NCBI GenBank assembly: GCA_963732855.1
Contig: CAVTBB010000002.1
Span: 439,733 to 503,732 of the forward strand
Direction of reading: 5' to 3'
Source: an uncultured Methanomassiliicoccales archaeon
GTDB lineage: Archaea > Thermoplasmatota > Thermoplasmata > Methanomassiliicoccales > UBA472
Length of the DNA stretch: 64,000 nt
Shown: positions 3,876-64,000 of the stretch, piece by piece
Position numbering within the stretch: the stretch's first letter is position 1
How the letters are laid out: each line of letters begins with the position of its first letter
Made by a program: the position numbers and the translations under genes
Notes under the pieces: generated by a model
Told to the model about the DNA's origin: nothing
What the model saw: the letters and a program-made list of their open reading frames with translations, nothing else
Database searches by the model: none

Positions 3876-5201
3876 ATGTCCATTTTGAACGAGATAATAT
3901 CGGCTGTCGTTCCGGATCAAGCCCTCCGAGAGGAAGTAGAGAAGGCTTCTGCTGACCTCGTCAGCATAGTAAGGGGAGAAGCCGCGTCCTATGGTATGGA
4001 CCTGGACGTTCGTCTCGTAGGTTCGGTGGCTAAAGATACATATCTGGGGGATCCCGATATCGATGTATTCATCCTTTTTCCTGAATCAACGTCCCGTGAG
4101 ACCTTGGAGAGCGTAGGTCTGTCCATAGGGCGAAAGGCCGTCGAGGGCGAGGAGAGATACGCTGAGCACCCATACATTCACGGGGTCTTCAAAGGGTTCC
4201 AGGTGGACCTCGTCCCCTGCTATAAGCTCGCCAATGCATTACATATCAAATCGGCAGTGGACCGGACACCTTTCCATACCGATTATATCTTGACCAATCT
4301 AAGGCCCGAACAGCATGATCAGGTCCGACTGTTGAAGCAGTTCTTGAAAGGCATCGGAGTGTATGGGGCAGACGCAAAGGTCAGCGGCTTTTCCGGATAT
4401 ATCGCCGAGCTCCTGATACTGCGATACCACGATTTTGATGGCACGATCTCCGCAGGATCTGCCTGGACCGCAGGGACCGTGCTTTCGTTGGCGGGAGAAT
4501 CGGATGGAGGGTTCAGGACCCCCTTAGTATTCATTGATCCGGTCGATCGTAACCGCAACGTAGCCTCCGCCCTGTCCATGGATTCGTTTGCTACGTTTGT
4601 ACGAGCCTGCGGACAATATACTATCCAGAACGATCGTCGATTCTTTTTCCCGAATCCTTTGGAAACGTTCGAAACCAATGAGATAGCCAAGAGGTTGGAC
4701 AGATTGGGATCCAAGGTCGTGGCGGTGAGGGCGGAACGTCCCGACCTCACTGACGACAATCTATACCCACAGATGCAAAGGACCTCGGAAGGACTGAACG
4801 GACTGCTGGACCAATACGGATTCAAGGTAATGGACCATACATACCTGGCAGGTGATGTGATTACCTTTGTCATCATGCTGGAGAGCGACAGACTGTCCGA
4901 TTGCATGTTGCATCTGGGCCCCCCGGTATGGGTGGCCAACTCCGAGAAATTCCTGGAACGCTGGGAAGTGGAAGGGGCCAGCCCCCCATTTATCAAAGAT
5001 GGCAGGTGGGCGGTCATGGCCGATAGGGAACACACCTATGCCTCGGACCTATTGCGGAGAAGATTCAAGGACGCGGCGCTCGGCAATTCATTCAGGAAGC
5101 TCGTCAGCATCGAAGTTTTCGATCATGATACGGTAAAGGATCATGGATTCGAAGAGGCCCTTACAAAGATGCTAGATAAGAGATTTGCCTGGGAAAGATG
5201 A
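3876..5201 (+). CDS. cca: CCA-adding enzyme (archaeal class I)
   Basis: VGSVAKDTYL..DIDVF, YAEHPY, VDRTPFHT, GFSGY, IDPVD..RNVASA motifs; start could be 3834-3876. Confidence 0.95.
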   Translation: MSILNEIISAVVPDQALREEVEKASADLVSIVRGEAASYGMDLDVRLVGSVAKDTYLGDPDIDVFILFPESTSRETLESVGLSIGRKAVEGEERYAEHPYIHGVFKGFQVDLVPCYKLANALHIKSAVDRTPFHTDYILTNLRPEQHDQVRLLKQFLKGIGVYGADAKVSGFSGYIAELLILRYHDFDGTISAGSAWTAGTVLSLAGESDGGFRTPLVFIDPVDRNRNVASALSMDSFATFVRACGQYTIQNDRRFFFPNPLETFETNEIAKRLDRLGSKVVAVRAERPDLTDDNLYPQMQRTSEGLNGLLDQYGFKVMDHTYLAGDVITFVIMLESDRLSDCMLHLGPPVWVANSEKFLERWEVEGASPPFIKDGRWAVMADREHTYASDLLRRRFKDAALGNSFRKLVSIEVFDHDTVKDHGFEEALTKMLDKRFAWER

Positions 5202-5220
5202 TTGCGGATCCTCCTTCCAT

Positions 5221-5577
5221 TTACGCGAATGGGGGATTCAGCATCAGGATCCACGTTCCCAGGTACAGGAAGAAGAACATGGCGATGTTGCCCAACCAGC
5301 CCTTCTTATCGATCTCGGCGGTGTTGATCTTGAATATCTGGTAGAAGAATTTCAATAAGTAAATACCGACGAAGAACAGCAACAGCCCGACCAGTGGCGA
5401 TATGGAGTTGGTAAGTCCGGCCACTATGCCGAATATTAAGCCCCAGACGAAGGACAGCATGGTGATCTTGGTTGCCCGGATATCTTTCTCGAGAAAGTCC
5501 TTCTCATCGAAGTCTGGAGGAACGAACTCGTATTGAGGTTCCTTCTTTTCCTCCTCCTTTCTCTTCTTTTGGGCCAT
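5221..5577 (-). CDS. Conserved small membrane protein
   Basis: 118 aa, charged N-terminus (YEFVPPDFDEKDFL) followed by about 3 TM helices. Confidence 0.75.
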   Translation of the reverse strand: MAQKKRKEEEKKEPQYEFVPPDFDEKDFLEKDIRATKITMLSFVWGLIFGIVAGLTNSISPLVGLLLFFVGIYLLKFFYQIFKINTAEIDKKGWLGNIAMFFFLYLGTWILMLNPPFA

Positions 5578-5879
5578 GGAAATCCCCTAATCACAAGCCG
5601 CTAATAATATCTTTGCCCGATTAGCAACTGGCCTCACCAGCATCCATGGCCTCCATAACCTTGGGATATTGGCAGGGTTATTGTCATAACCATGCTACTG
5701 GACGGTGGATCGTCCCTTTGCCGTTTGTTGTGAAAGATGTAGCAACGCCATTATAATCCTAAGGAATTTTTGAAATATAGGAATCTCGGTATTTTCGCCG
5801 CAATTCTTAACGAGTAAGAAGTAGCAAGTGGAACATCCGGATCAGGCCACAGAACGCGGCGTTCATAATTGCCCGGTTC

Positions 5880-6625
5880 GGATCCGTCAAGAACCTGATC
5901 GAGCAAATAGTCCATCCTTTGATCGACCTTCTTTCCGTAACAAGGCCGGAGAGGAGAAGGCCATCAGCCTCATCATGAGCAGGACCGAGCTCCAGAGGTC
6001 AGCATTGGAATAGGCTCAACGAGAGTTCGAGGTCTACCGCGTGGAAGCACAGAACCTGCTCATCGCGTACATCAAGGTGGACCAGGCACTTCTCGACACC
6101 CAAACCAAGAGGGAGATCGCGTTGCAGCAACAGGCCCAGTACCAGCAGGAGGCATTGGCCCAAGAGAAGCGAATCGAGGTCCAGTCAAAGGCGGCGAACG
6201 CCGACAAGCGGCCAGAGGTGGTGGGCGGCCATGTTATGTTATCGATCAAGATCGAGGAGGACAAGGCCGAGGCGAAGAGGAAACTCGCTGGAGGTGACAG
6301 GGACTTCAACAAGATCACCGCCGACGGCGAGAGCTACAAACTGAAGACCGTTGCCGATGGTAATGCATATGCCCAGCGCGAGGTCGGCAGGGGTATCGCC
6401 GACGCCTACCGGGCACAGGCGGAGGCCGTAGGCAGAGAGGCCACCGCGGCGATCAAGATCATGGACGAGGTCGGGATAAACAAGGTCAAGATCACTCCGG
6501 ACATCATGATCTCCGGGTCGGCCGGCGATTCGGGTGCAATGCCCCTTTTCTCCACCTTCCTGGCCCAGACCGTGGTCAAGAATTTGGAGACGAAGAAGGA
6601 CCCGGAGCAGATTCCGAAGAACTGA
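5880..6625 (+). pseudogene. SPFH/band-7 (flotillin-like) protein C-terminal fragment
   Basis: LIEQIVHPLID / SFRNKAG...RTELQ and an A/E/Q-rich coiled coil ending KITPDIMISG; frameshift near 5930, in-frame TAG at 6011-6013, N-terminus missing. Confidence 0.6.
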
Positions 6626-6850
6626 GACGCGCCTGGAACGCTAACCAATCTTCTTCCCTTTCCTTTTTCAGCTATTCTGATGAGGCGACCGATCTTTCTA
6701 TTCGGGTGAGGCTCCATTAACACTTCCTGCACTGAATGCATTTTAGCGTCCAGAGAATCCTCCGGGACACCATGGAAGGGCTAAGTACTTTCGGACAACC
6801 CGTCATCACCCTTTTAAATAGGGGTGCCATTAGCAGAGGTAGGTGCATCA

Positions 6851-7792
6851 ATGGCTGAGAAGAAGATAGAAGAGTTGCCTGGAGTTGGACCCGCAACTGC
6901 CGAAAAGCTGCGTGATGCCGGATATCAAGATCTTATGTCAATAGCAGTGGAGAACCCGAAGGTCCTCGCAGAGGTCTGCGAGATCGGAGAGGCGACCGCT
7001 GCAAAGATCATCGCCGCCGCGAAGGAGGCGGCCGATGTCGGTGGATTCGAGTCCGGAGACACAATACTAGAGAGAAGGAAGAACCTGAAGAGGTTGACCT
7101 CCTCGTCGAAAGCGTTCGACGATCTGCTCGGAGGCGGACTTGAATCCCAGGCGATCCATGAGTTCTTCGGCGAGTTCGGTAGCGGGAAGACCCAGATGAT
7201 GTTCCAGCTAGCCGTGAATGCTACCATGCCGGTCTCGAAAGGAGGATTGGATGGAGATGTTGTCATCATCGACACCGAGAACACATTCCGCCCGGAAAGG
7301 ATCGTTCAGATCGCCAACGCGCAAGGCGTGGACCCGATGGAGACACTGCAGAGGATCCACGTGGCAAGGGCTTTCAACTCATCGCACCAGATGTTGCTGG
7401 TGGAGAAGGCCGCGGATATGGCGGTGAAAACCCCCATCAGACTGCTGATCGTCGACTCGTTGACCGCCCACTTCCGTTCCGAATATGTCGGCAGAGGCAC
7501 ATTGGCAGAGCGACAGGGACTGCTGAACAAGCACATGCACGACCTGCTCCGGTTCGGAGATGTCAGCAACTCCGTGATCGCAGTGACGAACCAGGTGGCA
7601 GCCAAGCCGGACGCGTTCTTCGGGGACCCGACGAGGCCCGTTGGAGGCCATATCGTCGGGCACGCCTCGACCTTCCGAGTCTACCTGAGGAAGAGCAAGG
7701 GCGGCAAGCGTATAGCCCGGCTCATCGATTCCCCGAACCTGCCTGAAGCGGAGTGCGTTATCACCGTTTCAGAAGAAGGTATAAGGGACTGA
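6851..7792 (+). CDS. radA: DNA repair and recombination protein RadA
   Basis: [15 protein letters not shown] HhH, Walker [27 protein letters not shown]. Confidence 0.97.
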
Positions 7793-7811
7793 TGCTTGAC
7801 CCAAGCATCCG

Positions 7812-8832
7812 ATGATCGATCCCGAAAACACCAACCTCTCCCCCTTCCTTTTTGAACTGTCGGGGGAGCATCCCACCCTTCCATCAGCTGAGGCAATAGC
7901 CTGTGTGGAAGCGGAGTGCCCGAACTATGTGGAGTCCGGTTCGGGACCGGGGTACCGGCTTTTCCATTTTGATCGGGCGAACGCATCTCGGATAGCTGAT
8001 AGGATCGCGCTAACCCACAGGATGGGCAGGTATCTGGGCAGCTGCGATAAGCATGACATAGTGAGGTTCCTTTCGGAAATCGAGCTACCGGAGGGGAGTG
8101 TTTCTGTCCGGGCCAAACGATTCGAGAACAACCAACCGGACATCGAAATCCCCGCACTTGTGAATAAATGTGGAAGTTCCCTGACCAAGGACCGAGCAGT
8201 AAACCTGGAGAATCCGGATGTACCAATACGGATCCTGATCTCGGACAGATTGCATTTCTACATAGGGGATCTCGAGGTCGACCGCAAGCAATTCGATATA
8301 AGGAAAGTGGGGGAACGTCCGTTCTTATCACCCATCTCTTTGCACCCGCGATATGCCAGAACGCTGGTGAACCTTACTCGGGTCAAACGTGGTCAGACCG
8401 TTCTAGACCCGTTCTGGCACTGGAGGCATTCTCATCGAGGCTTCGATGATCGGCGCGAAGGTGCTCGGCTCTGACATAGCGGAGGATATGGCTAGCGGAT
8501 GCGTATCTAACCTAAACCATTTTCAGGCCCAGTTCGAACGGGTCGACGTGTCGGACATTGGAGACATCGCGAGCGTGTTCGGAAAAGTTGACGTTGTGGC
8601 GACCGACCCGCCCTATGGACGTTCGGCCAGCCTCTGGAAGGAGGGCAAGTCCTCGCTCTACGGGAGGGCGATGGATGCTTTCGTAGAAATTGTCAAACCC
8701 GGAGGAAGGGTCGGGGTCGTCTTCCCCGCACCTTTAGATCATGCCAGGGAAGGACTCGTCCAAACTGAATCGCACATACAAAGGGTGCACCGATCATTAT
8801 CCCGCCATTATTGCCTATTTACAAGGCTATAG
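7812..8832 (+). CDS. tRNA m2G10 methyltransferase (Trm11/TrmG10; THUMP + MTase), frameshift near 8415
   Basis: FELSGEHPTLP, ERPFLSPISLHPRYAR, LDPF[shift]GTGGILIEA, ATDPPYGRS, VHRSLSR. Confidence 0.88.
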
Positions 8833-10657: not shown

Positions 10658-11473
10658 GTGAACCGGATAGTCCAGTTGTTCCGTTTGGGCAACTGCCTTA
10701 TGGGTATCGTCGGTCTCCTGATGAGCGTGCTAATAGCCACGGGAACCGCGATAACGGATTACTGGGCGGACCTCATTCCGGCAGCTTTCGTTGTCTTCTT
10801 CTTCGTGGCCGCGGGCAATTCACTGAACGACTACATGGACCAAGAGGTGGACAAGGTAGCCCACCCGGAAAGGCCGATACCCTCTGGGAAGATGCGGCCG
10901 AACACCGCCCGGACCATCTCGATCTATTGCTTCGCCGCCGCGCTGATCGCTTCCTTCTTCCTCAGGCTCGAGGCGACACTGGTCGTGGTCGTGGCGATGG
11001 CTCTGATGCTGGCTTACGAACTGAGCACGAAAAAGAAAGGATTCTCCGGCAATCTGACCATCGGCCTGCTAACCGGGATGCTCTTTGTTTTCGGCGGTTC
11101 CGTCGTTGGCATGGTGGACAAGACCATCGTCATCGCCCTGATGGCCGGATTGGCCACCCTCGGGCGGGAGATCGTCAAGGACATCCAGGACATGGAAGCC
11201 GATTTCGACCGGAAAACACTTCCCAAGCGGATCGGCAAGAGAAATGCAGGCATAGTGGGCAGCGTTGCATTCGTCACCGCGGTCGCATTGAGCCCGGTGC
11301 CCTACCTGACCAACGTGTTCGGTCAAGGATATCTGTTGGTGGTCCTTGCCGCCGATGCAATATTTATATACTGTTCAATTGTTCATTTTCGAAATCCGAC
11401 CAGGGGTCAGCAGCTAGCTAAATATGGAATGCTGGTCGCCCTAGTGGCCTTCCTAGTAGGAGGAATCCAATGA
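10658..11473 (+). CDS. Digeranylgeranylglyceryl phosphate synthase (UbiA family)
   Basis: AGNSLNDYMD..VDKVAHPERPIPSG, REIVKDIQD; overlaps the GGGP synthase start. Confidence 0.9.
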   Translation: MNRIVQLFRLGNCLMGIVGLLMSVLIATGTAITDYWADLIPAAFVVFFFVAAGNSLNDYMDQEVDKVAHPERPIPSGKMRPNTARTISIYCFAAALIASFFLRLEATLVVVVAMALMLAYELSTKKKGFSGNLTIGLLTGMLFVFGGSVVGMVDKTIVIALMAGLATLGREIVKDIQDMEADFDRKTLPKRIGKRNAGIVGSVAFVTAVALSPVPYLTNVFGQGYLLVVLAADAIFIYCSIVHFRNPTRGQQLAKYGMLVALVAFLVGGIQ

Positions 11474-12204
11474 AAGTCATCGAGTATCTTCGGGAAAAGG
11501 TCCAGAAAGGGACAGTACACATGACGCTGATCGACCCCGCCAAACAGGAACCGGATCAGGCGGGGGACATCGCTTCAGCAGCGGATGGGTTTGGCACCGA
11601 TGCTATCATGGTCGGCGGTTCCACCGGCATCACCCAGGAGAACTTGGACGCAACCATTCTGGCCATCAAGAAGTGCACTAGGCTGCCGGTCATTTACTTT
11701 CCCAGCGGTGCGCACGCCATTTCCCCTTACAGCGATGCCATCTACTTCATGAGCATGCTCAACAGCCGCAATGTGAAGATGATCATCGGCGAACAGGTGG
11801 CCGCCGCACGGATCGTCAAGAAGCTCGGACTGGAGCCAGTTTCCATGGGCTACATCATCATCGAGCCAGGCATGAAGGTGGGAGAGGTCGGGGAGGCCGA
11901 TGTGATAAAACGTGATGATCCAAAGACGGCAGTCTCATATTCTCTGGCCGCGGAGTACATGGGCATGCAACTGGTGTACCTAGAGGCGGGAAGCGGCGCT
12001 CCCTCACCCGTTCCCAGCGAGATCATTGGCGAGGTCCGAAAGAACATTACGGTACCTTTGATCGTCGGAGGCGGCATCAGGGAGCCAGAGCAGGCTGCCA
12101 TGGTCAGGGAGGCCGGCGCAAACATCATAGTGACCGGCACGGTGGTCGAGAACGGCGAATACCAGGATAAGCTGAAGGCCATCATCCACGCGGTCAAAGG
12201 CTGA
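11470..12204 (+). CDS. Geranylgeranylglyceryl phosphate synthase
   Basis: HMTLIDPAK, IMVGGSTG, YLEAGSGA, VGGGIR. Confidence 0.94.
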   Translation: MKVIEYLREKVQKGTVHMTLIDPAKQEPDQAGDIASAADGFGTDAIMVGGSTGITQENLDATILAIKKCTRLPVIYFPSGAHAISPYSDAIYFMSMLNSRNVKMIIGEQVAAARIVKKLGLEPVSMGYIIIEPGMKVGEVGEADVIKRDDPKTAVSYSLAAEYMGMQLVYLEAGSGAPSPVPSEIIGEVRKNITVPLIVGGGIREPEQAAMVREAGANIIVTGTVVENGEYQDKLKAIIHAVKG

Positions 12205-32861: not shown

Positions 32862-33834
32862 ATGAGGGTGGCGATCGCGGGGGCCGGCATGTCTGGCTCT
32901 TATCTGTACCGGATCATGAAAGGATCAGGGTTTCAATGAGGTGGACCTCTACGACGTCAAGCAGACCAGCGCCTGCCATTGCATACCCTGTGCCTGGGGC
33001 TTCGCTCCGACCTCTGGAACGCGGCAGATGATGTCCAAGGTCGTCGACCCGTCCATTTTCGAATTGAACCGTTCAACTCAGGTATCGGTGGACGGTGTGA
33101 AGATCCGTTCAGACATGATCACGTTGGATAAACCGGCGCTAATTAAGGAATTGATCAAGGGAGCGACCGTCAAAGAGGGGCGGATAGAAATGGATGCATA
33201 CGACCGTGTGGTCGATGCCACAGGGGTGAACCGGTCCTATCTGCCAAAGATCGAGGACGATATCATAGCCCAATGCACGCAATACCGCATAAGGAGCGAT
33301 GAACCCCATGGCTTATGGTTCAGGACCTCGTCGCTCGGTTACGAATGGTGCTTTCCACTCGGGAATGACGAGTACCATGTCGGTTTCGGGAACCTGAGAT
33401 CCGATGTCAAGGATTACCGGCCATCAATGCTCGACGATACGGAGAACGGCTTGAAACAGGTGCGCTGCAGATGCCAAGGCAAGGTGAGGCTATCATCTCC
33501 ATTCTTTTCCCAACCGTTCACCGAAGGGAAGGTCGTCGGCATCGGCGAAAGCATCGGGGCGGTGTCTCCCCTGGCCGCCGATGGCAACCTACATGCAATG
33601 CAGACGGCGGAACTACTGCTGGAATACTGGGAAGACCTGGACGGCTACTCAAAGGAAGTGTTACGCAGATATGACTGGATGAGAAAGGAGAGGCGCACAG
33701 CGGAAAAACTGAGGGACGGGCTGATGCCTACTATCAGCGATGCTTTGGTCTTCAAGAGGCATAGCGTCATGGCGGGGATGGAGATGAACACGCTCAATAT
33801 CTTGAGGCTGTTCCGAAAATCGCTGGAACGATGA
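32862..33834 (+). CDS. Geranylgeranyl-reductase-like FAD oxidoreductase, frameshift near 32935
   Basis: MRVAIAGAGMSG (GxGxxG), PCAWG, VVDATG, GYEWCFP, IGESIGAVSPLAADG. Confidence 0.82.
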
Positions 33835-33879
33835 GCATGTTCGACTGGAGGTTCTTCAGAGCCGATCGGGGGCCATCAA

Positions 33880-34551
33880 ATGGGGATTGATGGGAACCTG
33901 GATTGGTACCGGCATCTGGTGCACAATCAGACCATCCCAGGCAGCCTGTTCACACTGTTGCACATCCCCTTCATGCTCTCCTTCCTCTCGCTGGTCCTTC
34001 TGGGTACGTTCACCATTAAAGGGTTGGACCACGATGTCCTGTGGCTCTCGCTGGCGGCGGTTGCCCTGATGCTGTACGGCGAACACATGCTGGACGACAC
34101 GACCAGGGTGGGTAAGCCATGGCGGACGGTCTTCAGTGACCGGTCCCTGGTCATCCTCGGCGTATCCATGTATATCATCGCGGCACTGATCGGCGCTTAT
34201 GCCAGCTACCATTTCGGATCGATCCTCCCATTGGCCGGGGTGGTTATGGGGATCATGTTCTGCACGTTGTACGGGCTTGAGGTGTGGATCTTCCACCAGG
34301 TCTGGTTTGGAGCGCTAGGGATGGGGGCCATCGCCACATTCTCCTATCTCGCACAGGCCACCATCACCGGGCAGGCACTTGACGTTCTGGTCGCGTTCTT
34401 GCTCCTGGGAGCCGGTTTCTCGTTCAGCTATGTCCTCTTGGGACTCTACGAGCACAGCAAGACCGATGAGAGCTCGGTGATCTGGAACATCCTCGCCGGG
34501 CAGTTCGCGCTGTCTTATATGGCAGGACTGACGGTGGTTTTGTTCAGATAA
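33880..34551 (+). CDS. UbiA-like integral membrane protein (divergent)
   Basis: TLLHIPF...GEHMLDD motif, about 7 TM helices. Confidence 0.55.
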   Translation: MGIDGNLDWYRHLVHNQTIPGSLFTLLHIPFMLSFLSLVLLGTFTIKGLDHDVLWLSLAAVALMLYGEHMLDDTTRVGKPWRTVFSDRSLVILGVSMYIIAALIGAYASYHFGSILPLAGVVMGIMFCTLYGLEVWIFHQVWFGALGMGAIATFSYLAQATITGQALDVLVAFLLLGAGFSFSYVLLGLYEHSKTDESSVIWNILAGQFALSYMAGLTVVLFR

Positions 34552-34725
34552 CGTCCTGGAATGGATCATTGAGGGCCGGAACCTTAATTGCCATGGGGCT
34601 CCGAACTGTATCTTATTGTATGGAAAGGAAGTCGGGGCCAGACAAACTTCAGGAATGGTCATTAGCCTAACTGCTATCCCAATCATACGAGGAGATCTGG
34701 GGGGCCTTACATAAGGCCGTCATCC

Positions 34726-35649
34726 ATGTTCTATTTCGCAAGGGTGAAGCCCCTAGCCGGCTGGAGCATCAGCGGATCCCTGCTGGGCGTGGCCTTGGCC
34801 GGATATCTGGCCCACTGGAACAAGGTGGACGTCGTGCCCACCATCCTAGCTGCCGTCGTCATTGTCATGATGCAGTATGTTGCCCACCCGATGAACGATA
34901 TCATGGACTACGAACTTGACCGCCAAGCGCCCATCGGCGAAACAGGGCGAGTAAAACCATTGGTCGACGGGATGATAACCCAAAAAGAGACCGAATGGTT
35001 GAGCGTTGGCGTCATTCTGGCTGTCCTTGCCGTCCTGGCCTATCTGATATGGCTGCGCCCGGTACTGATAATGCCCGCTTTCTACGGGATGGCGGCCTTG
35101 ATCGGCTACAACCACCGATCGCTAAGGCTGGCTTATAGACCATACAGCGAGCTCTACCTGAGCATGCCGATCAATGCCATCGCGGTGTTCGTGATCTCGT
35201 ACATCGGCTCTGGCCAACTGAGCGTGATCGCCGCAGTGGTGAGCATATCTTTCGGTTTTGCCGCGAGTTCCTTCTTCGTGAGCATGATGAGCATGGACTT
35301 CCCGACCGATCGCAAGAACGGCAAGAGGACCACTGTGGTCGCCCATCCGACCCTGAGATGGTGCACATACTACCCCCTGATAGGATTGGCGATCACCTTC
35401 GTTTCATTGCCCTTGATCGCCAGTAACCTCGGTATTTTCCCTTCCCTCGCCTTCCTGGCGATATCGGCTGCAACCTTCATTTCCCTGGCACGCCTCGGCT
35501 CAAGTGTTGACAGCGTCAGGTTGGGATATTTGGCAGGGGTTATGGCCGAAGTCGAGGGGGTTACAGGAGCTGGAAGATTGCGCCAGCTTTACCTTTCGAT
35601 CGCCTACGCGTTCTCCCTGGCGATCCTTTTCGCTTATCTGGGGATGTGA
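34726..35649 (+). CDS. UbiA/MenA-family aromatic prenyltransferase
   Basis: HPMNDIMDYELD first motif, LAYRPYSE, MDFPTDRKNGKRT second motif, about 9 TM. Confidence 0.82.
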   Translation: MFYFARVKPLAGWSISGSLLGVALAGYLAHWNKVDVVPTILAAVVIVMMQYVAHPMNDIMDYELDRQAPIGETGRVKPLVDGMITQKETEWLSVGVILAVLAVLAYLIWLRPVLIMPAFYGMAALIGYNHRSLRLAYRPYSELYLSMPINAIAVFVISYIGSGQLSVIAAVVSISFGFAASSFFVSMMSMDFPTDRKNGKRTTVVAHPTLRWCTYYPLIGLAITFVSLPLIASNLGIFPSLAFLAISAATFISLARLGSSVDSVRLGYLAGVMAEVEGVTGAGRLRQLYLSIAYAFSLAILFAYLGM

Positions 35650-35653
35650 CCTG

Positions 35654-36721
35654 ATGGAACTAGTGCCCAATTCAAGAACTATCATCGAAAGGACAGGGAA
35701 GGAACGGAGCGATAGAGACAACCATTCATTCTCGACCTATCTGGAGAACATCAAACCGATGGTAGACACCAGGATCTTGGATCACTTCAGGGATGGAGGT
35801 GCAGAAACGCCGATCGACCATCGGTTGGAGATCACACTGAAGCATGGGAAAAGGATGCGGGCTGGCCTGCTCATGCTCATTTTCGAGACATTTGGTCACG
35901 AGAGGGGTCGTGAAATGGCGTTAGATCTTGCTGCAACGGTGGAAATCGCTCATGCCGCAAGCCTAATCGTGGATGACATGCTGGATGAGGACGAGACCCG
36001 GCATGACATGCCAGCCCTTCATGTCACCGCCGGGCACAAGAAGGCCTTCCTCGGGACCATCGGACTGCTATCTTATCCATACCAAATCGCCTCGATGTAC
36101 GGCAGAGAATTCGTTCTGGGAGTGGCGAGGACCCATCGTGCCATGGTCCGAGGGGCGACGATGGAGCTGAACGGAGTTCCGTCATTCGGCATCGGGGAAT
36201 CATATGAAAGTATCATCGGGAACAAGACGGGGTCCCTGTTCGGCCTGGCGGCCCGATACGGTGCCATGGCCGCCGGTTTCACGTCAGGGACAACCGATCT
36301 ATGCTCCGGGTTCGGTACGCTGACCGGAAAGGCGATGCAGGTCGCCGATGACGTGGCAGACCTAGAATCGCTGATGAACGGGAAGGCGATCGGGATTGGC
36401 GGTTCAGAGGTCTTGCTTCTGCGGCGCTGCATCGATCAAACAGGACATAGGCAAGAGGACGATGACCGGGACATTGGTGAACCTATATACCCGTTCGGAA
36501 CAGCTCGCCGAAAGGACATCGAAATCGTTCTTAACGGGTATCTCGAGGCGGCCATACGTGATGCCGTGGAGAGTGCCGAGAAGCTCGAGACCGCTTTATC
36601 GAAAGAGGGTAAGGAGCGCACCACGGACCGGCGTGTCCCTGAACTGAGGCATGTACCTCTGCAGGTCGCGAAGATGGCGCTGGGCGAAAGAAATGAGCCA
36701 GGATCTTCGGCAAGGGAATAA
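35654..36721 (+). CDS. Polyprenyl diphosphate synthase
   Basis: GKRMRA, HAASLIVDDMLD..TRH, KTGSLF, QVADDVAD. Confidence 0.9.
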   Translation: MELVPNSRTIIERTGKERSDRDNHSFSTYLENIKPMVDTRILDHFRDGGAETPIDHRLEITLKHGKRMRAGLLMLIFETFGHERGREMALDLAATVEIAHAASLIVDDMLDEDETRHDMPALHVTAGHKKAFLGTIGLLSYPYQIASMYGREFVLGVARTHRAMVRGATMELNGVPSFGIGESYESIIGNKTGSLFGLAARYGAMAAGFTSGTTDLCSGFGTLTGKAMQVADDVADLESLMNGKAIGIGGSEVLLLRRCIDQTGHRQEDDDRDIGEPIYPFGTARRKDIEIVLNGYLEAAIRDAVESAEKLETALSKEGKERTTDRRVPELRHVPLQVAKMALGERNEPGSSARE

Positions 36722-37190: not shown

Positions 37191-37826
37191 TCAGATATTG
37201 TGCGCTTCCTTTAGATGGCGGCCAAGGTTGTTTGAGAGTTCTTCCCCATCCATTCCGCGGATCTCGGAATCGCACATAGGGCAGATCACCATTTCGTTCC
37301 CCATGCCACACTTTGCGTTCACGGTCCTGAAACTGGTGACCTCCTCGATCTTCTTTTCACCACCAGAGACCTGGCCTTGGAAGCGGGTCACTTCATCGAT
37401 CTTCTTTTCACCGCCAGAGACCTGGCCTTGGAAGCGGGTCACTTCATCGATCTTCTTTTCACCGCCAGAGACCTGGCCTTGGAAGCGGGTCACTTCATCG
37501 ATCTCCTTTTTACCGCCAGAGACCTGGCCTTGGAAGCGGGTCACTTCATCGACTTCTTTAACTGATCCTGAGGACAAAGAACCTGTCTTATCGGCATTTT
37601 CGAACGATTCCACTTCCCGGTACACCTTCGCCGAGGGCCCCACTGGACCGGGCTCACATTCTTTGCCTCCCGAGGCCATTCCCTCCATTGGCTTCCCAGG
37701 CCTGCTCATATTATGGAGCTTCAGAAAATGTTCACTTAGGTTCTTTGAGAGTTCCTCTGAACCAGCTCCCGCGATCACGTCTTGGCATTTAGGGCACTTA
37801 ATAGATGTAATACCATCACCGTGAAC
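37191..37826 (-). CDS. Protein with two CxxC..H..H (DUF1059-like) domains flanking a 17-aa repeat; start uncertain
   Basis: CPKC..EELSKNLSEHFLKLHNM and CPMC..EELSNNLGRHLKEAHNI. Confidence 0.7.
   Translation of the reverse strand, partial: VHGDGITSIKCPKCQDVIAGAGSEELSKNLSEHFLKLHNMSRPGKPMEGMASGGKECEPGPVGPSAKVYREVESFENADKTGSLSSGSVKEVDEVTRFQGQVSGGKKEIDEVTRFQGQVSGGEKKIDEVTRFQGQVSGGEKKIDEVTRFQGQVSGGEKKIEEVTSFRTVNAKCGMGNEMVICPMCDSEIRGMDGEELSNNLGRHLKEAHNI
37335..37555. repeat. 51-bp coding tandem repeat, about 4 copies
   Basis: Unit TCGATCTTCTTTTCACCGCCAGAGACCTGGCCTTGGAAGCGGGTCACTTCA at 37345, 37396, 37447, 37498; encodes IDEVTRFQGQVSGGEKK. Confidence 0.95.
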
Positions 37827-37984
37827 ATCATTCGAGTTTGTTTCTATATAACACTTATCTTTCCTGATTCGACTAGGACTCAGTGGATCTACAGATGACG
37901 CAGGAAAAGCGCTGAATGCCAAGTCGTGAAAAGGCAGCACAAGGATTAACAGAATGCTTATCGCGATACTCGAAGGTAGCTGTA

Positions 37985-39032: not shown

Positions 39033-40916
39033 CTAAAGTAGAACGAGAAGCCGATCATTTCCGGACCGTCTGCGGGGGATCATGATCTCGAACCTCGCCC
39101 CGTGGCCCGGCGTTCCGGTCTCCTGGATCGTGAGTCCCGTGATCGCAAGGATCTCCCGGGAGAGGAAGAGCCCGAGCCCGGTTCCCTTGCCAAAGCCTTT
39201 CTCGAATATCTTTTCCTTATCATTGTAGGGAATTCCCGGACCGTCGTCCTCATAGACCAATCTCATTCCTTTCTCCGTTTGGTCGCAACCGATGCTGATG
39301 GATGCGGGCTTACCCGCATAGCGCACCGTGTTCTCCATGAGATTGTTGAACACCTTTGGCAGCATAGGGTCGGCATAGAGCGAAAGCTTCGCCGCCTCCT
39401 CGCTCATTTGAAGGCATTTGACATCCCTGGCCATGGGAGCGTCGCGAACTGTCTCCCCTAGGTTCTGCCATTGCGGGGCTGAACTTCCCATGTCCTGGTA
39501 TTCCTCGGTGAAACGTATCTGTTCCAGTATGATCTGGCTCGATCGATCGATCTTGTCGAGCTTGACCACCGCGTCCGGGTCGGATATGTAGTACTTGATC
39601 AGCTCGATGTTGCCTCGCATTATGGATATCTGGTTGGTGATGTCATGCCGTGTGATGTTGTTCAGCAAGCCCAACTTTCGATTCGCCATTTCCAAAGCTA
39701 TCTCCGCTTTCTTGCGTTCGGTGATATCCTGGTTCGCCCCAAAGATCCGGATGGGCCGGCCATCATCATCCCTCACCACCTCTATGCAAACGGTGATATC
39801 CCTTACCTGGCCATCCCGGCGGACGATCCGGTGCTCAGCTTGGTTGATCCCGATGGTGGACGAAAGGTTGATCTCGATCACCTTGTTGACATGAGCCTTA
39901 TCGTCAGGATACACGAAACTATCAGTATAGGTCTGCAAAGGCATGAGGTACCCCCCCTCATTTTCGGCCGTCGTACCGTAGAGTGCATAGAACTGATCGT
40001 TGAAGATGAAAATTCCTTTGACCAAGTCAATGTCCCAATAGACCAGTTTGGCCAGGTCCATGGCCAGAGCAAGCTGATACTGAGCTGCTCGGAGATCCTC
40101 CTCCGCGGCAGAGATCTGCGAATAGGACGTGCTAAGCTCCTCATTCTTCCGGAAGAGCTCAACCTCTACCTTCTTCCGTTCGGTGATGTCCTGCAGAACG
40201 CCGAAGACAATGCGGTGGATCGGATCGTATTCCGCCCACGAATGGACATCCAATAACCTATTGTCGGAAGGCCTCTTGATCTTGAATTCGATGTCGTAGG
40301 GTTTCCCTTTCTCTATAAGGTCAGTTATCTCACTATCTAGATTGGCTCGGAATTCGGGCAACGGGGTCTTCTTGATCTCAGAATATGCCTCCCGCGTCTG
40401 ATCGATGCCATATATGATCTGGGCACCTGCGGAAGCATGCATGTACATAGTATCCAGGTGGAGTTCCCAGTGACCGATCCCAGCGATCTCCTCGGCGTGT
40501 TTCAGGCGAGCCTCGCTCTCTTGAAGCGCGAGCACCGCACGGCGCCGTTCAGTAGCTCTTATGATCCTGTGGGCCAGTTCGGCGAACTGGGGTCGAGGTT
40601 GCCCGCCTTTCTGTAAATATGAATCAACCCCTTCGTTCAGCGCCTGGATCACTACCTCTTCCCTGCCTCTTCCAGTGAAAAGAATGAATGGAATATCGTT
40701 GCCTGATTTTCTGAGTGCCTTCAGGAAGGCCAACCCGTCCATTTCCGGCATCATGTAGTCTGAAACGACGACGTCGATGTCTCCTTCGAGGATTATGTTC
40801 ATCCCCGCCTGAGCGTTAGTGGCTGTAACCACTATGATCTCGCTAGAGGTCTGCAAGAACTCTTTAGCTAGTTCCAGCAAGTGTTCCTCGTCATCGACGT
40901 ATAGGGCTCTGATCAT
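39033..40916 (-). CDS. Hybrid REC-PAS-PAS histidine kinase
   Basis: YVDDE..SDYMMP, PAS/PAC ends QDITERK twice, RHDITNQ H-box, DDGPGI, GTGLGL. Confidence 0.93.
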   Translation of the reverse strand: MIRALYVDDEEHLLELAKEFLQTSSEIIVVTATNAQAGMNIILEGDIDVVVSDYMMPEMDGLAFLKALRKSGNDIPFILFTGRGREEVVIQALNEGVDSYLQKGGQPRPQFAELAHRIIRATERRRAVLALQESEARLKHAEEIAGIGHWELHLDTMYMHASAGAQIIYGIDQTREAYSEIKKTPLPEFRANLDSEITDLIEKGKPYDIEFKIKRPSDNRLLDVHSWAEYDPIHRIVFGVLQDITERKKVEVELFRKNEELSTSYSQISAAEEDLRAAQYQLALAMDLAKLVYWDIDLVKGIFIFNDQFYALYGTTAENEGGYLMPLQTYTDSFVYPDDKAHVNKVIEINLSSTIGINQAEHRIVRRDGQVRDITVCIEVVRDDDGRPIRIFGANQDITERKKAEIALEMANRKLGLLNNITRHDITNQISIMRGNIELIKYYISDPDAVVKLDKIDRSSQIILEQIRFTEEYQDMGSSAPQWQNLGETVRDAPMARDVKCLQMSEEAAKLSLYADPMLPKVFNNLMENTVRYAGKPASISIGCDQTEKGMRLVYEDDGPGIPYNDKEKIFEKGFGKGTGLGLFLSREILAITGLTIQETGTPGHGARFEIMIPRRRSGNDRLLVLL

Positions 40917-61341: not shown

Positions 61342-62607
61342 CTATTTTGCTTGGATATCCCCTGTTTTCATAGGTACGCCCGGATCCCAAGCATCGTCAA
61401 GTATCAATTTCGCCTCCTCGAAAGTAATATTTCGCAATTTTTTAAATTGCTCCTTAGGAATTGATTTGTGTTCAAGTGATGGAGAGTAATACTTCAACCC
61501 TTCCCTTACGCATATATTCGTGCGACGAACATTTTTTCTGAATTGTTTTACTGATTTATCTGTCCAACCACAGCTTTCATGGATATAATAATCGAGATTT
61601 GTTTGACCAATTTTTCTAGCATCAAAATGATCGTACATTTGAGAAAGGGGACGGAACCGACAATCAGAAATCTGAACCTTCCAATTCCAACACTGGACTC
61701 TTTTTAGTTCCATCTCTTCAAAGGTTGTGTCCCAATTATATAATACAAATACATAAATCTGATTTGATGGATACCCGGCTTCCAATAGCATGTTGATTTG
61801 CTTTTCAATGCTCCCTTTTTGGGCAAATCCCCAATCCCATGCGATCCTTGGGTACCTGAATCCAGCTTTCCTTAGCATTTTCGCAAGCTCTGGCTTTTCG
61901 AGAAATATTCTCCCATCAAAACCAGATTGACTTTCACACCAGGTGATCTTTTTTTCAGATTTTAGGTCGGCTAGTTCCTTCAATATTATTTCAATACTTG
62001 GATTCATCAATAGATTATTGTCATAAAATACTATTTTTTTATACTTGATTAATTTGTCAACCGTACTTTTTGGGACAAAATTTGGTTCGATTATCCAGGT
62101 TCCACAAAATTTGCACTCCCTCGGACAGCCCCTGGACAAATGCACTATTTGGTAGTCTATTTCTTCATCTTCGGAGACTAGAAGGTCGTAGGCTGGGAAT
62201 TCTTTCTCGGCCTCCTCAATCACTCCTTTAATCACGACATCTGCACCTGTATATTTCTTGACCTCATCTTCTGGACGGAGTGAAGCGTATATTCCTCCGA
62301 CTTTGACAGTTGACTGGGGGAACTGTTTCTTGTAGAACTGGACCGAATCCCGAACATATTTCGACCAGTAAGTGAACAGTGAAGTTACCCATACTTCGTC
62401 TGGGTAGAATTGGGAAATCTCAATTGTATCCTCTATTGTTTTTGGAATTCCTCTAACAAGTTTTACTTGATTTCCATTTTTCCTTTGCATAGCGGCGATT
62501 TTCAATAACCCAATTGGTAAGAAGTTTTTGTGATTCTTGCTTTTTACTGGTATGGGAAAATCAGGTTCGACCAATAGAATCTTTTTCAACAGTATCACCA
62601 AAATCAA
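61342..62607 (-). CDS. B12-binding radical SAM protein
   Basis: LLVEP..FLPIGLLKIA, TSLFTYW, VGGIYASL, SRGCPRECKFC, FYDNN. Confidence 0.85.
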   Translation of the reverse strand: MILVILLKKILLVEPDFPIPVKSKNHKNFLPIGLLKIAAMQRKNGNQVKLVRGIPKTIEDTIEISQFYPDEVWVTSLFTYWSKYVRDSVQFYKKQFPQSTVKVGGIYASLRPEDEVKKYTGADVVIKGVIEEAEKEFPAYDLLVSEDEEIDYQIVHLSRGCPRECKFCGTWIIEPNFVPKSTVDKLIKYKKIVFYDNNLLMNPSIEIILKELADLKSEKKITWCESQSGFDGRIFLEKPELAKMLRKAGFRYPRIAWDWGFAQKGSIEKQINMLLEAGYPSNQIYVFVLYNWDTTFEEMELKRVQCWNWKVQISDCRFRPLSQMYDHFDARKIGQTNLDYYIHESCGWTDKSVKQFRKNVRRTNICVREGLKYYSPSLEHKSIPKEQFKKLRNITFEEAKLILDDAWDPGVPMKTGDIQAK

Positions 62608-62608
62608 G

Positions 62609-63453
62609 TTACTTAATTATAATTTCATTCCAGTTGTTTTTCTTTGCGCAAACTCGGACAATTTTGCCTAGGTCCTTTTCATTGATAAGGACCGATTCGG
62701 CTGAACCGACCAAATCGTTTCTATTCTCGCCATCTAACGAGTAGCCAGACACTCTTCCCTCAAGCACCTTATAGGAAGTTTTCAAAGTCATTTCTAACAT
62801 AATTTTATCCTTAGGCCCTATTAGGAGTACATATCGAATTTTGTCGTTTTTGAGTGTGCTTATTTTTCTCAAATTGTGATCTAATCCATATTTCAGACAA
62901 TTTGCTACAATGACCCGAACTTTGCCATCTGGACTCGAGAATCCGGCATCGAATTCCTTATCCTCAAACTTCAAGGGCTTCACAACTTTCAGTGGCCCTT
63001 CGACCACCTGTCGATCGAGGGCTGCTTTCTCTGCAGTTACAATCTTGTTTGAATATGAGAACCAATTGCACAGTGTTATTGCTCTCCTATTCGCTGTGCT
63101 TTCAGCCAACTTTAAATTTGATTTTAACCATTCTTTAATAATTATTTTATCAGGATTTGTTATTATTGTCGGACCTAGTTGATCCATCAGAATCTTAGTA
63201 ATTTCGGCGTTGCGTATAGATTCTGATATTAGTTTGATCGAATCGAACTTTCCGACTCTAGAATCTTTGTACCCGAATCAGTCAATCTACGCTCCTCATC
63301 GATCCAGCCTAGGATTTCACAAGCAGTAATTATCAGATTCCCGTGTCTGATATGCTGCCCGCATTTGGTGGCAATTTTCTGTGCCGTTGGATTATCTGAC
63401 TTAAATTCGGCCAATATTATTGCCAGGAACTCGGGATTTTCTTTTTCAGGCAC
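62609..63453 (-). CDS. wHTH-containing hypothetical protein (two ORFs joined by a frameshift; may be the C-terminus of the HerA-like gene)
   Basis: ACEILGWID..RLTDSG and LAESTANRRAITLCNWF winged-helix pattern; frameshift near 63230. Confidence 0.55.
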
Positions 63454-63522
63454 AAACTTACGATCAGGGTATTAATATTGATCCCGCCCGTTTATGCGCC
63501 CCACCCACCATGCTCACTCTTT

Positions 63523-64000
63523 CTAGGCCTGATCTTTACAATTTCTACCTTTTCTTTTTGGATCATCAATGACAATCGCTTCCCCCACATGAGAGAGTTT
63601 CTTCATATAAAATTCGATATCTTTCGCAACATAGTTCTCTGAAAGAGCGTTTATTGCTTTGATATCTTCTCTGTTTGTCAGCTTATGAATAATCCTAGAA
63701 TCACACTGACTCAGAACCTCACTATCGATCGCTGAGGGCTGTTGTGTTGCTACAATTAGAGATAGCCCTGGTTGCCTTCCCTCTTTCGCCCATCGGATAA
63801 TTATCTCCTTGGAGAGCGAGTTCTTACCTGAAGGGCAATAATTTTGAGCTTCATCTATTGCCAGCCATACTTTTTTCATTTCCGAACCGAATTCCAAAGC
63901 TTCAAGCCGTCTTGATTTGACCCTTTCTGAAAAGATAAACTTCGCAATTATCGCCACGATTAGATTTCTAAGTCCTTTAAGGGATTGGTCGACCGGACTG
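63523..64000 (-). CDS. HerA/FtsK-like ATPase, partial (5' end outside the window)
   Basis: IDEAQNY, KEGRQPGLSLIVATQQPSAID, LSQCD..IIHKL; continues IRPRKSEHGG after a frameshift. Confidence 0.85.
   Translation of the reverse strand, partial: SPVDQSLKGLRNLIVAIIAKFIFSERVKSRRLEALEFGSEMKKVWLAIDEAQNYCPSGKNSLSKEIIIRWAKEGRQPGLSLIVATQQPSAIDSEVLSQCDSRIIHKLTNREDIKAINALSENYVAKDIEFYMKKLSHVGEAIVIDDPKRKGRNCKDQA

Follow-up and report, generated by a model that had tools for sequence, protein, structure and literature searches.

The window examined here is a 64,000-nucleotide stretch of the genome of an uncultured Methanomassiliicoccales archaeon (G000:C2:439733-503732; source genome G000, 2.54 Mb, 97.2% complete). 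Within it four open reading frames, g1 to g4, follow one another on the + strand and form a cassette whose core is the pair g3-g4, a prenyltransferase and a polyprenyl synthase, with a reductase-like flavoprotein (g1) as its usual companion and a short UbiA-fold protein (g2) as an optional one. The cassette is accessory, limited to part of the Methanomassiliicoccales and so far found mostly in environmental metagenome-assembled genomes (MAGs). We think it reasonably probable that the cassette makes a prenyl chain longer than C20, passes it to an acceptor supplied from elsewhere and saturates it in part, giving an accessory membrane compound. The original prediction, made from the DNA alone, had read the cluster as a candidate pathway for a membrane electron carrier missing from the lineage, and overall it is partly supported: the four co-oriented genes at 32862..36721 are present, in an order that recurs in related loci, as are all the motifs it quoted (NDxxD and DxxxD..GKRT in g3; Ala at -5 and Ser at -4 in g4). 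The features of the cassette are as follows.

32862..33834, + strand: g1, gene for a flavoprotein resembling geranylgeranyl reductase (GGR), whole extent, reading frame broken
32862..32939, + strand: N-terminal fragment of g1, 25 codons with the Rossmann motif GxGxxG (MRVAIAGAGMSGSYLYRIMKGSGFQ) and TGA at 32937; its translation aligns to the N-termini of intact orthologues
32919..32921, + strand: frameshift site of g1, AAA where five relatives have AA (DNA alignment, single-column gap in five of five relatives)
32920..33834, + strand: main body of g1 in the +1 frame, a compact GGR-type flavoprotein; the longest open reading frame with a start codon is GTG 32941..33834
33880..34551, + strand: g2, a 223-residue membrane protein of UbiA fold whose Asp-rich motifs are degenerate (predicted structure and alignment)
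34726..35649, + strand: g3, a UbiA-superfamily prenyltransferase of 307 residues with both Asp-rich motifs intact (Pfam, alignment and tree)
35654..36721, + strand: g4, a divergent trans-polyprenyl diphosphate synthase of 355 residues (Pfam, orthologue alignment and residue table)

The open reading frame of g4 was listed from GTG 35504 (35504..36721); the start supported by orthologue alignment is ATG 35654, 4 nucleotides past the g3 stop. This close spacing is general, since the g3 stop and the g4 start overlap or lie within 5 nucleotides in most loci. Twenty related loci were compared, from 20 of the 23 other g3-positive genomes (three with short contigs were left out), and g3 and g4 are adjacent in every one of them, with g1 present in 16 and g2 in 12. 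All genome counts refer to one order-level sample of 201 genomes, the source genome included, of which 24 carry g3. Orthologues of g4 (E <= 1e-37) are found in 22 of these 24 and in none of the 177 g3-negative genomes; in both g3-positive genomes lacking one, g3 lies at a contig end, and weaker g4 matches (E about 1e-16) are ordinary synthases. The co-conservation that had been proposed as a check was thus observed for the pair. Orthologues of g2 occur in 15 genomes, all g3-positive, and the g1 family in 34, comprising 22 of the 24 g3-positive genomes and 12 g3-negative ones.

Leaving the source genome aside, g3 occurs in 9 of 46 genomes of family f1, in 14 of 24 of family f6 and in none of the 114 of f7, the largest family. 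Even within the genus it is patchy: four of seven genomes have it, and the three that do not comprise two single-contig genomes, with completeness of 99% and 85%, and a third in about 190 contigs (93%). The order of the cassette genes is conserved across two families. In f6 the flanks are housekeeping genes of no relation, and the cassette therefore appears self-contained; the conserved f6 neighbours (AIR carboxylase-like, DNA polymerase X-like, GNAT, Nre, radical SAM and thermosome genes) were considered as cluster members and rejected. A further scan with one genome per species, which rests on two peptide patterns, returned 22 g3 loci, all but one from entries titled MAG (soil, peat, fen, digester and similar), the other being the rumen-derived RumEn M1.

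This distribution does not fit the proposed role in electron transport. Subunit N of the Fpo-type complex (TIGR01770) is encoded in 199 of the 201 genomes and g3 in 24, so the cassette cannot supply a carrier generally needed by that complex, and its product cannot be the general electron carrier of the order. The original reading, in which the product is a partly reduced, long-chain prenylated aromatic (quinone- or phenazine-like) that carries electrons in the membrane, for instance from the Fpo-like complex to HdrD or another acceptor, is in our judgement improbable. It gains from the nearest NCBIfam models of g3, which are PRK05951 and naphthoate prenyltransferase variants, from the G-K-R-T that follows the second Asp-rich motif of g3 and presumably resembles MenA, and from the pairing of a prenyl reductase with a synthase for chains above C20, which would fit a carrier side chain. 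Against it stand, besides the absence of g3 from f7 and from three genomes of the same genus (two of them single-contig), the low scores of g3 and its position outside the true MenA clade (see below), and the lack of a recognizable naphthoate pathway. MqnA and MenB were not found in the 97.2% complete genome and MenD-model matches fall well below cut-off, and menaquinone was rejected as the product on these grounds. UbiD is present and is uninformative on this point because such homologues serve other archaeal pathways. The sole PhzF-like gene of the genome, a PhzF-family gene at G000:C3:659284-660121, is broken: its match is split into three pieces and contains a single in-frame TAG, the coordinates of the pieces suggest two frame changes, and it could be a pseudogene, a sequence error or, at the TAG, a case of pyrrolysine. 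Of the products first proposed for the cluster, a prenylated compound or an unusual lipid could still be made by it, with the quinone-type route weakened. The current model of the pathway, moreover, needs no carrier, Fpo being modelled in the relevant passages of two later reviews as passing electrons directly to HdrD (PMC7374477, PMC6019823).

The operon is built of known folds; their combination and the subfamilies involved are not described in the literature searched, in which only Borrel et al (2014; PMC4153887) was found to discuss ubiA in the order. Passages of that paper already propose for the order an unknown lipid-soluble carrier, 'X', made via homologues of ispA, ubiA and ubiE, which counts in favour of the carrier reading and means that the idea itself is not new. 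The published set and the cassette share the order and the notion of a polyprenyl synthase working with a UbiA homologue (PMC4153887), yet the published genes appear from their placements to be other than g3 and g4, because the ispA accession given there adjoins the fpoN accession, the ubiA of the paper has an entry for Ca. M. alvus as well, and a MenA-like gene is found in 14 of the 15 f7 genomes examined, in the family from which g3 is absent. As with the published ispA, a long-chain-type synthase gene of the present genome (C3:18331-19296) lies beside a NuoN/FpoN-type gene, in company with a 330-residue GGR-family gene (the whole group spans C3:17293-21856; L059:3813-4805, 4851-5816 and 6895-8376). 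The best models for this synthase are solanesyl, heptaprenyl and octaprenyl, and in at least nine further genomes of the order a synthase is, by coordinates, a neighbour of fpoN. Together with its GGR the synthase of the present genome is a better candidate than the cassette for making a carrier side chain. The cassette is too patchy to provide a lipid-soluble carrier for the order, and the analysis turns attention to this fpoN-adjacent pair of synthase and reductase.

The transferase gene of the core pair belongs to an isolated family. g3 falls in Pfam UbiA (PF01040; 67.1 bits against a gathering score of 34.2) with the motifs NDIMDYELD and DFPTDRKNGKRT, and in an alignment of 20 family members N57, D58, D61, D65, D191, D195, K200 and T202 are invariant in all 20, among 58 invariant columns in total. 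With both Asp-rich motifs and so many columns held constant, g3 looks catalytically competent. A collection of 5.8 billion proteins contains 60 close relatives besides g3 itself, followed by a gap in E-value from 9e-60 to 7e-4, and a profile search gave 73 members before a gap to 6e-5. All named sources of these relatives are Methanomassiliicoccales or Methanomassiliicoccus, none among the named sources in either search lying outside the order, and the g3 profile matched none of the solved structures searched at E <= 1.

No NCBIfam model reached its cut-off on any of the 20 members, and all scores fell far short of it. PRK05951 matched 20 of 20 (best E 1.2e-11), MenA or naphthoate prenyltransferase variants 18 and the DGGGPS-like PRK12884 16, the last weakly; TIGR00751 matched nine (best E 1e-7; cut-off 102 bits), and the DGGGPS equivalogs NF009521 and NF009522 none of the 20. 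The best MenA-model E-value in the set was 6.4e-11, and the window g3 itself scored at most 24.9 bits against a MenA cut-off of 264. A 34-row maximum-likelihood tree was built from 11 g3 members, four paralogues from the source genome, E. coli MenA, UbiA and CyoE, ten MenA proteins of the phylum scoring over cut-off, two MenA-like f7 genes and four distant matches; its bootstrap support has not fully converged, and it has a single DGGGPS-type row, no Methanosarcinales paralogues and no reference terpene cyclases. Here, the g3 family forms a single clade (100/100), the stem of which measures 2.51 changes per column. Within this small reference sampling it branches apart from the true MenA clade (95/92), which holds E. 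coli MenA and nine of the ten over-cut-off MenA proteins of the phylum, and it sits in a polytomy with the DGGGPS-type gene and MenA-like paralogues, not grouped with the one DGGGPS-type row. We regard g3 as the founder of an isolated, deep-branching UbiA clade.

g3 shares with MenA the superfamily, the two Asp-rich motifs, a similar length and the presence of MenA-type models among the nearest in NCBIfam; it differs in falling below every MenA cut-off, in its place outside the MenA clade and in a host genome without the 1,4-dihydroxy-2-naphthoate (DHNA) pathway. With DGGGPS it shares membership in the UbiA superfamily of membrane transferases and an expected polyprenyl chain donor, and differs in matching no DGGGPS equivalog and in not grouping with the DGGGPS-type gene, that node being a polytomy. 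UbiA-type terpene cyclases also exist, and g3 might be a terpene synthase of this type that dispenses with a separate acceptor. It would turn the g4 product, by cyclisation or hydrolysis, into a hydrocarbon or alcohol of the membrane that g1 and g2 would go on to modify. A two-gene core without acceptor genes and the very long g3 stem are in keeping with such an enzyme, but the g3 motifs are those of ordinary transferases; we hold this to be very improbable.

The synthase of the pair, g4, belongs to Pfam polyprenyl_synt (PF00348; 105.8 bits against 27), its match covering profile positions 11-193 of 251. The region of its first DDxxD motif reads HAASLIVDDMLD, with DDMLD as first Asp-rich motif (FARM) and V, A, A and S at positions -11, -8, -5 and -4, and its second Asp-rich motif (SARM) is DDVAD; DDMLD and DDVAD are kept in 15 of 15 orthologues. 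The elements GKRxR, FARM, KT and SARM are likewise kept in all 15, and mostly also in two paralogues from the source genome that were aligned with them. Beyond the second DDxxD the family departs from this pattern: the Lys-bearing stretch GKxxGxDxxxGKxT is absent from all 15 orthologues and present in both paralogues, the last third of g4 is non-canonical and not conserved even among orthologues, and matches to solved synthases end near residue 241 (the best being the M. tuberculosis C45 synthase, E 5.4e-19).

The small residues that had been noted before the first DDxxD of g4 were compared across its orthologues. None of the 15 orthologues has an aromatic residue at -5 (A, I, V or S occur there), position -4 is S, C or G, and position -8 is Ala in 14 of the 15. 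For comparison, the IdsA-like synthase of the same genome has L, I and F at -11, -8 and -5, and the fpoN-adjacent synthase F, I and A. Since no capping residue precedes the first DDxxD, a g4 product longer than C20 is plausible, with C25 or more allowed. Like archaeal geranylfarnesyl diphosphate synthases (GFPS) and hexaprenyl, octaprenyl and nonaprenyl synthases, g4 has GKRxR, DDxxD, KT and DDxxD, with positions -5 and -4 free of aromatic residues; unlike them it scores far below all equivalog cut-offs (for example 73.6 against 600 for GFPS_Meth), lacks the motifs past the second DDxxD and cannot be aligned over its last third.

An uncapped synthase with a transferase of its own would make a coherent extended-lipid module that needs no head-group genes. 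In this alternative g4 is a geranylfarnesyl (C25) diphosphate synthase, g3 places the C25 chain on geranylgeranylglyceryl phosphate to form an extended archaeol, and the chain is saturated by g1. Only core intermediates are required, which suits a cassette without head-group genes, and the strict g3-g4 pairing fits as well. The residues of g4 agree, Ala occupying -8 and small residues -5, positions at which section 30 of PMC6423904 links small residues to extension to C25 and beyond. Extended (C25) archaeol is, according to passages of PMC7680562 and PMC6423904 that both cite Becker 2016, found in Methanomassiliicoccus luminyensis, although the synthase examined there has the bulky, capping L/I/F motif (PMC6423904, section 30), the same as in the IdsA-like synthase of the present genome. 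The two core ether-lipid genes of the window are these:

10658-11473: DGGGPS-type gene, 243.6 bits to NF009521, below the 296-bit cut-off
11470-12204: GGGPS gene

As originally described, the cassette stands apart from them, the DGGGPS-type gene lying 23 kb upstream of g3. Against the extended archaeol speak the failure of g3 to group with this DGGGPS-type gene (within a polytomy) or to match a DGGGPS equivalog, the DGGGPS-like model PRK12884 matching weakly in 16 of 20; the absence of any M. luminyensis record from the 22 loci of the two-pattern scan; and the restriction of the g3 family to the order, outside which it was not found, so that it would not be general extended-archaeol machinery. 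We regard this alternative as unlikely.

The first gene of the cassette is broken in this genome. The frame from ATG 32862 ends at TGA 32937 after 25 codons, and the homologous remainder lies in the +1 frame from 32920. In a DNA alignment the window g1 has one extra base compared with five relatives, which we read as the third A at 32919-32921; in those relatives the frame is intact, 322-341 residues long, and begins with the same Rossmann motif. Thus, a one-base insertion, which the original prediction had missed, cuts the FAD-binding N-terminus off g1. Read-through of the TGA or a programmed frameshift is unlikely because the relatives need neither, and the frame following the TGA is unlike the orthologues. 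The 297 codons past the break contain no further stop, so that the change is either very recent or an assembly error.

The insertion raises the alternative that the cassette is decaying or silent in this genome and that the g1 frameshift marks a loss of function, which would be compatible with the other readings. In its favour are the insertion itself, seen against five of five relatives, the patchiness within the genus (four of seven), the absence here of a sensor-kinase gene that stands ahead of g1 in three relatives, and the locus G115:C53 (L035:8663-11346) of a same-genus relative, where a second, inverted g4-g3-g2 copy with several stop codons lies just downstream of an intact cassette. 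On the other side, g2, g3 and g4 are open with their catalytic residues intact, the long g1 remainder has no stops, and an intact g1 paralogue is present in the same genome at G000:C5:231869-232828. We consider decay rather unlikely. The paralogue (L104:7825-8844) shares 63% identity with the g1 of a relative, and it may or may not be able to replace the broken gene. It belongs to a second clade, which comprises the g1 of the 12 g3-negative genomes, and it adjoins a gene for a Cys-rich DUF116 (PF01976) membrane protein (L104:9010-9684). The same pair occurs in a same-genus genome without g3 (L105:6972-7988 and 8158-8832); the neighbour of the second-clade g1 in genome G062 is a DUF116 gene.

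By sequence, g1 is weakly GGR-like: it gives 27.3 bits (E 2.7e-6) to TIGR02032 against a cut-off of 158.8 and a sub-threshold 15.7 bits to GGR_cat (PF22578; cut-off 27), and the four intact orthologues scanned gave weak Rossmann-type matches, below every family cut-off. The predicted structure of an intact orthologue (pLDDT 88.2) is more telling, its top fold match being the Thermoplasma GGR 3oz2 (E 2.1e-16, TMq 0.67), followed by Sulfolobus GGR (4opt/3atq), with PHBH and VioD-type monooxygenases close behind; for an organism that is strictly anaerobic, the reductase is the likelier of the two functions. The GGR-like label thus holds for the fold, the sequence scores falling short of it. The orthologues share GxGxxG, R-P-C-A-W-G, YDRVIDATG, G-Y-E-W-C-F-P-x8-G-F-G, GESIGxxxPLxxDG and four Cys (Cx4C and CxC), of which the window g1 retains IPCAWG, YDRVVDATG, GYEWCFPx8GFG, GESIGAVSPLAADG and the four conserved Cys (Cx4C, CxC). 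Among known systems, the comparison is with GGRs (Thermoplasma Ta0516, Sulfolobus) and MenJ-type reductases of quinone prenyl chains, the orthologue model folding like GGR. A Cys in P-C-x-x-G context and a Y-x-W-x-F-P-x8-G-x-G stretch, which we take to be GGR hallmarks, are present in the orthologues. In contrast to ordinary GGRs of about 400-450 residues, members of the g1 family have about 322, lack roughly 50 middle-domain residues, carry the four conserved Cys and score below all family cut-offs.

The second gene, g2, matches no Pfam family, and a search of 1.84 billion protein representatives gave it only 17 relatives (E <= 1e-3). Its earlier description as a divergent UbiA-like protein holds for the predicted fold, because the AlphaFold model (pLDDT 91.4, nine helices) best matches UbiA-family structures: VIA-align gave 4od4 with Z 14.1 (root-mean-square deviation 3.2, 189 residues aligned), 4tq3 with 13.9, UBIAD1 (8djm) with 13.3 and DGGGPS (6m31) with 12.6, against about 11 for soluble prenyl synthases, Z values in a range that for helical bundles is moderately above background only. 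Foldseek also placed the UbiA family first, with an E-value of only about 1e-2. The fold agrees with three further hints, namely sub-threshold UbiA matches in three of 12 scanned g2 relatives, weak matches of the g2 profile to frames of about 300 residues, presumed to be UbiA-type genes, and a profile alignment (hhalign) that set E-H-x-x-D-D of g2 in register with H-P-x-N-D of g3, itself non-significant (probability 3.7%, E 0.012). g2 has lost the canonical acidic motifs, H69, D72 and D73 alone being left at the position of the first; P30, G42, H69, D72, L90, Y131 and H139 are invariant in the alignment. Complex prediction for g3 with g2 gave no verdict, scoring 0.00 in both runs. In a language-model atlas, g2 look-alike clusters of 228-241 residues without a Pfam family are commonest in Nitrososphaerota and Actinomycetota, which is a lead only.

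In the mechanism that we favour, g4 would extend an allylic primer by condensation with isopentenyl diphosphate (IPP), and the resulting all-trans prenyl diphosphate would exceed C20, likely C25 or more to judge from the absent cap. The transferase g3, always encoded directly upstream and abutting or overlapping the synthase gene, would use its two intact Asp-rich motifs to ionise this diphosphate and move the chain to an acceptor not encoded in the cassette; its fold and motifs are evident, and donor and acceptor are assigned by inference. The compact GGR-type g1, with its four extra conserved Cys, would hydrogenate double bonds of the chain, and g2, which keeps part of the first acidic motif, may be an optional helper or a second-step enzyme. 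The product would be a membrane-resident prenyl compound, either an extended (C25+) ether lipid derived from an intermediate of core lipid synthesis or a small head group carrying the prenyl chain. The readings weighed in this analysis partly overlap with this general mechanism, and the likelihoods given for them are not meant to sum to one.

Several observations weigh against the favoured mechanism. Beyond family membership, we infer the chemistry of the cassette. g4 may not be an ordinary chain elongase, because it lacks the Lys-bearing motifs and its last third aligns to nothing solved; nor does a small residue at -5 fix chain length, and some orthologues have Ile or Val there. In this genome the g1 frame is broken, and an intact frame with the FAD-binding GxGxxG is found in the relatives instead. 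The substrate of g1 need not be the cassette product, because 12 of the 34 genomes with the family have it without g3, beside DUF116. Finally, g2 is missing from nine of the 24 g3-positive genomes.

Extended C25 ether lipids have been reported from the order, yet the one synthase examined looks C20-capped in the relevant section of PMC6423904; in part of that order g4 offers an uncapped synthase that is closely coupled to a transferase of its own. Both g3 and g2 represent uncharacterised branches of the UbiA fold, and the small, self-contained cassette is suited to heterologous expression. More speculatively, and in our view with little likelihood, the product could be an undescribed, partly saturated long-chain prenylated membrane compound present only in some environmental Methanomassiliicoccales, perhaps a redox-active shuttle lipid that their gut relatives lack, with g2 as a new catalytic type, a short UbiA-fold enzyme with a His/Asp/Glu site.

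Elsewhere in the genome, a 561-residue UbiA fusion is encoded beside a canonical 396-residue GGR (191.5 bits to TIGR02032) at G000:C3:410885-413757 (L056:4739-5929 and 5926-7611), and a gene for a 419-residue MenA-like protein lies beside a radical SAM gene at G000:C3:61895-64181 (L057). A scan with bacterial-type models, which are ill-suited to archaea, gave one promoter-like site against 3.3 expected and four terminator-like sites against 3.9, an uninformative result. Around the cassette, three same-genus relatives have a gene of about 940 residues with response-regulator, PAS and histidine-kinase parts between an HD-domain gene and g1 (L035:1119-3935, L036:1147-3952 and L037:1138-3960). In the window this gene is missing at that place, and a related 627-residue gene lies downstream at 39033-40916 on the - strand. 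An open reading frame just downstream of g4 (37191-37940, - strand) contains 4.2 tandem copies of a 51-base unit at 37345-37559 (96% matches), encoding a 17-residue unit flanked at both ends by CPxC-type motifs. The last 2 kb of the window (62001-64000) have a G+C content of 0.40, against 0.47-0.57 elsewhere in it.

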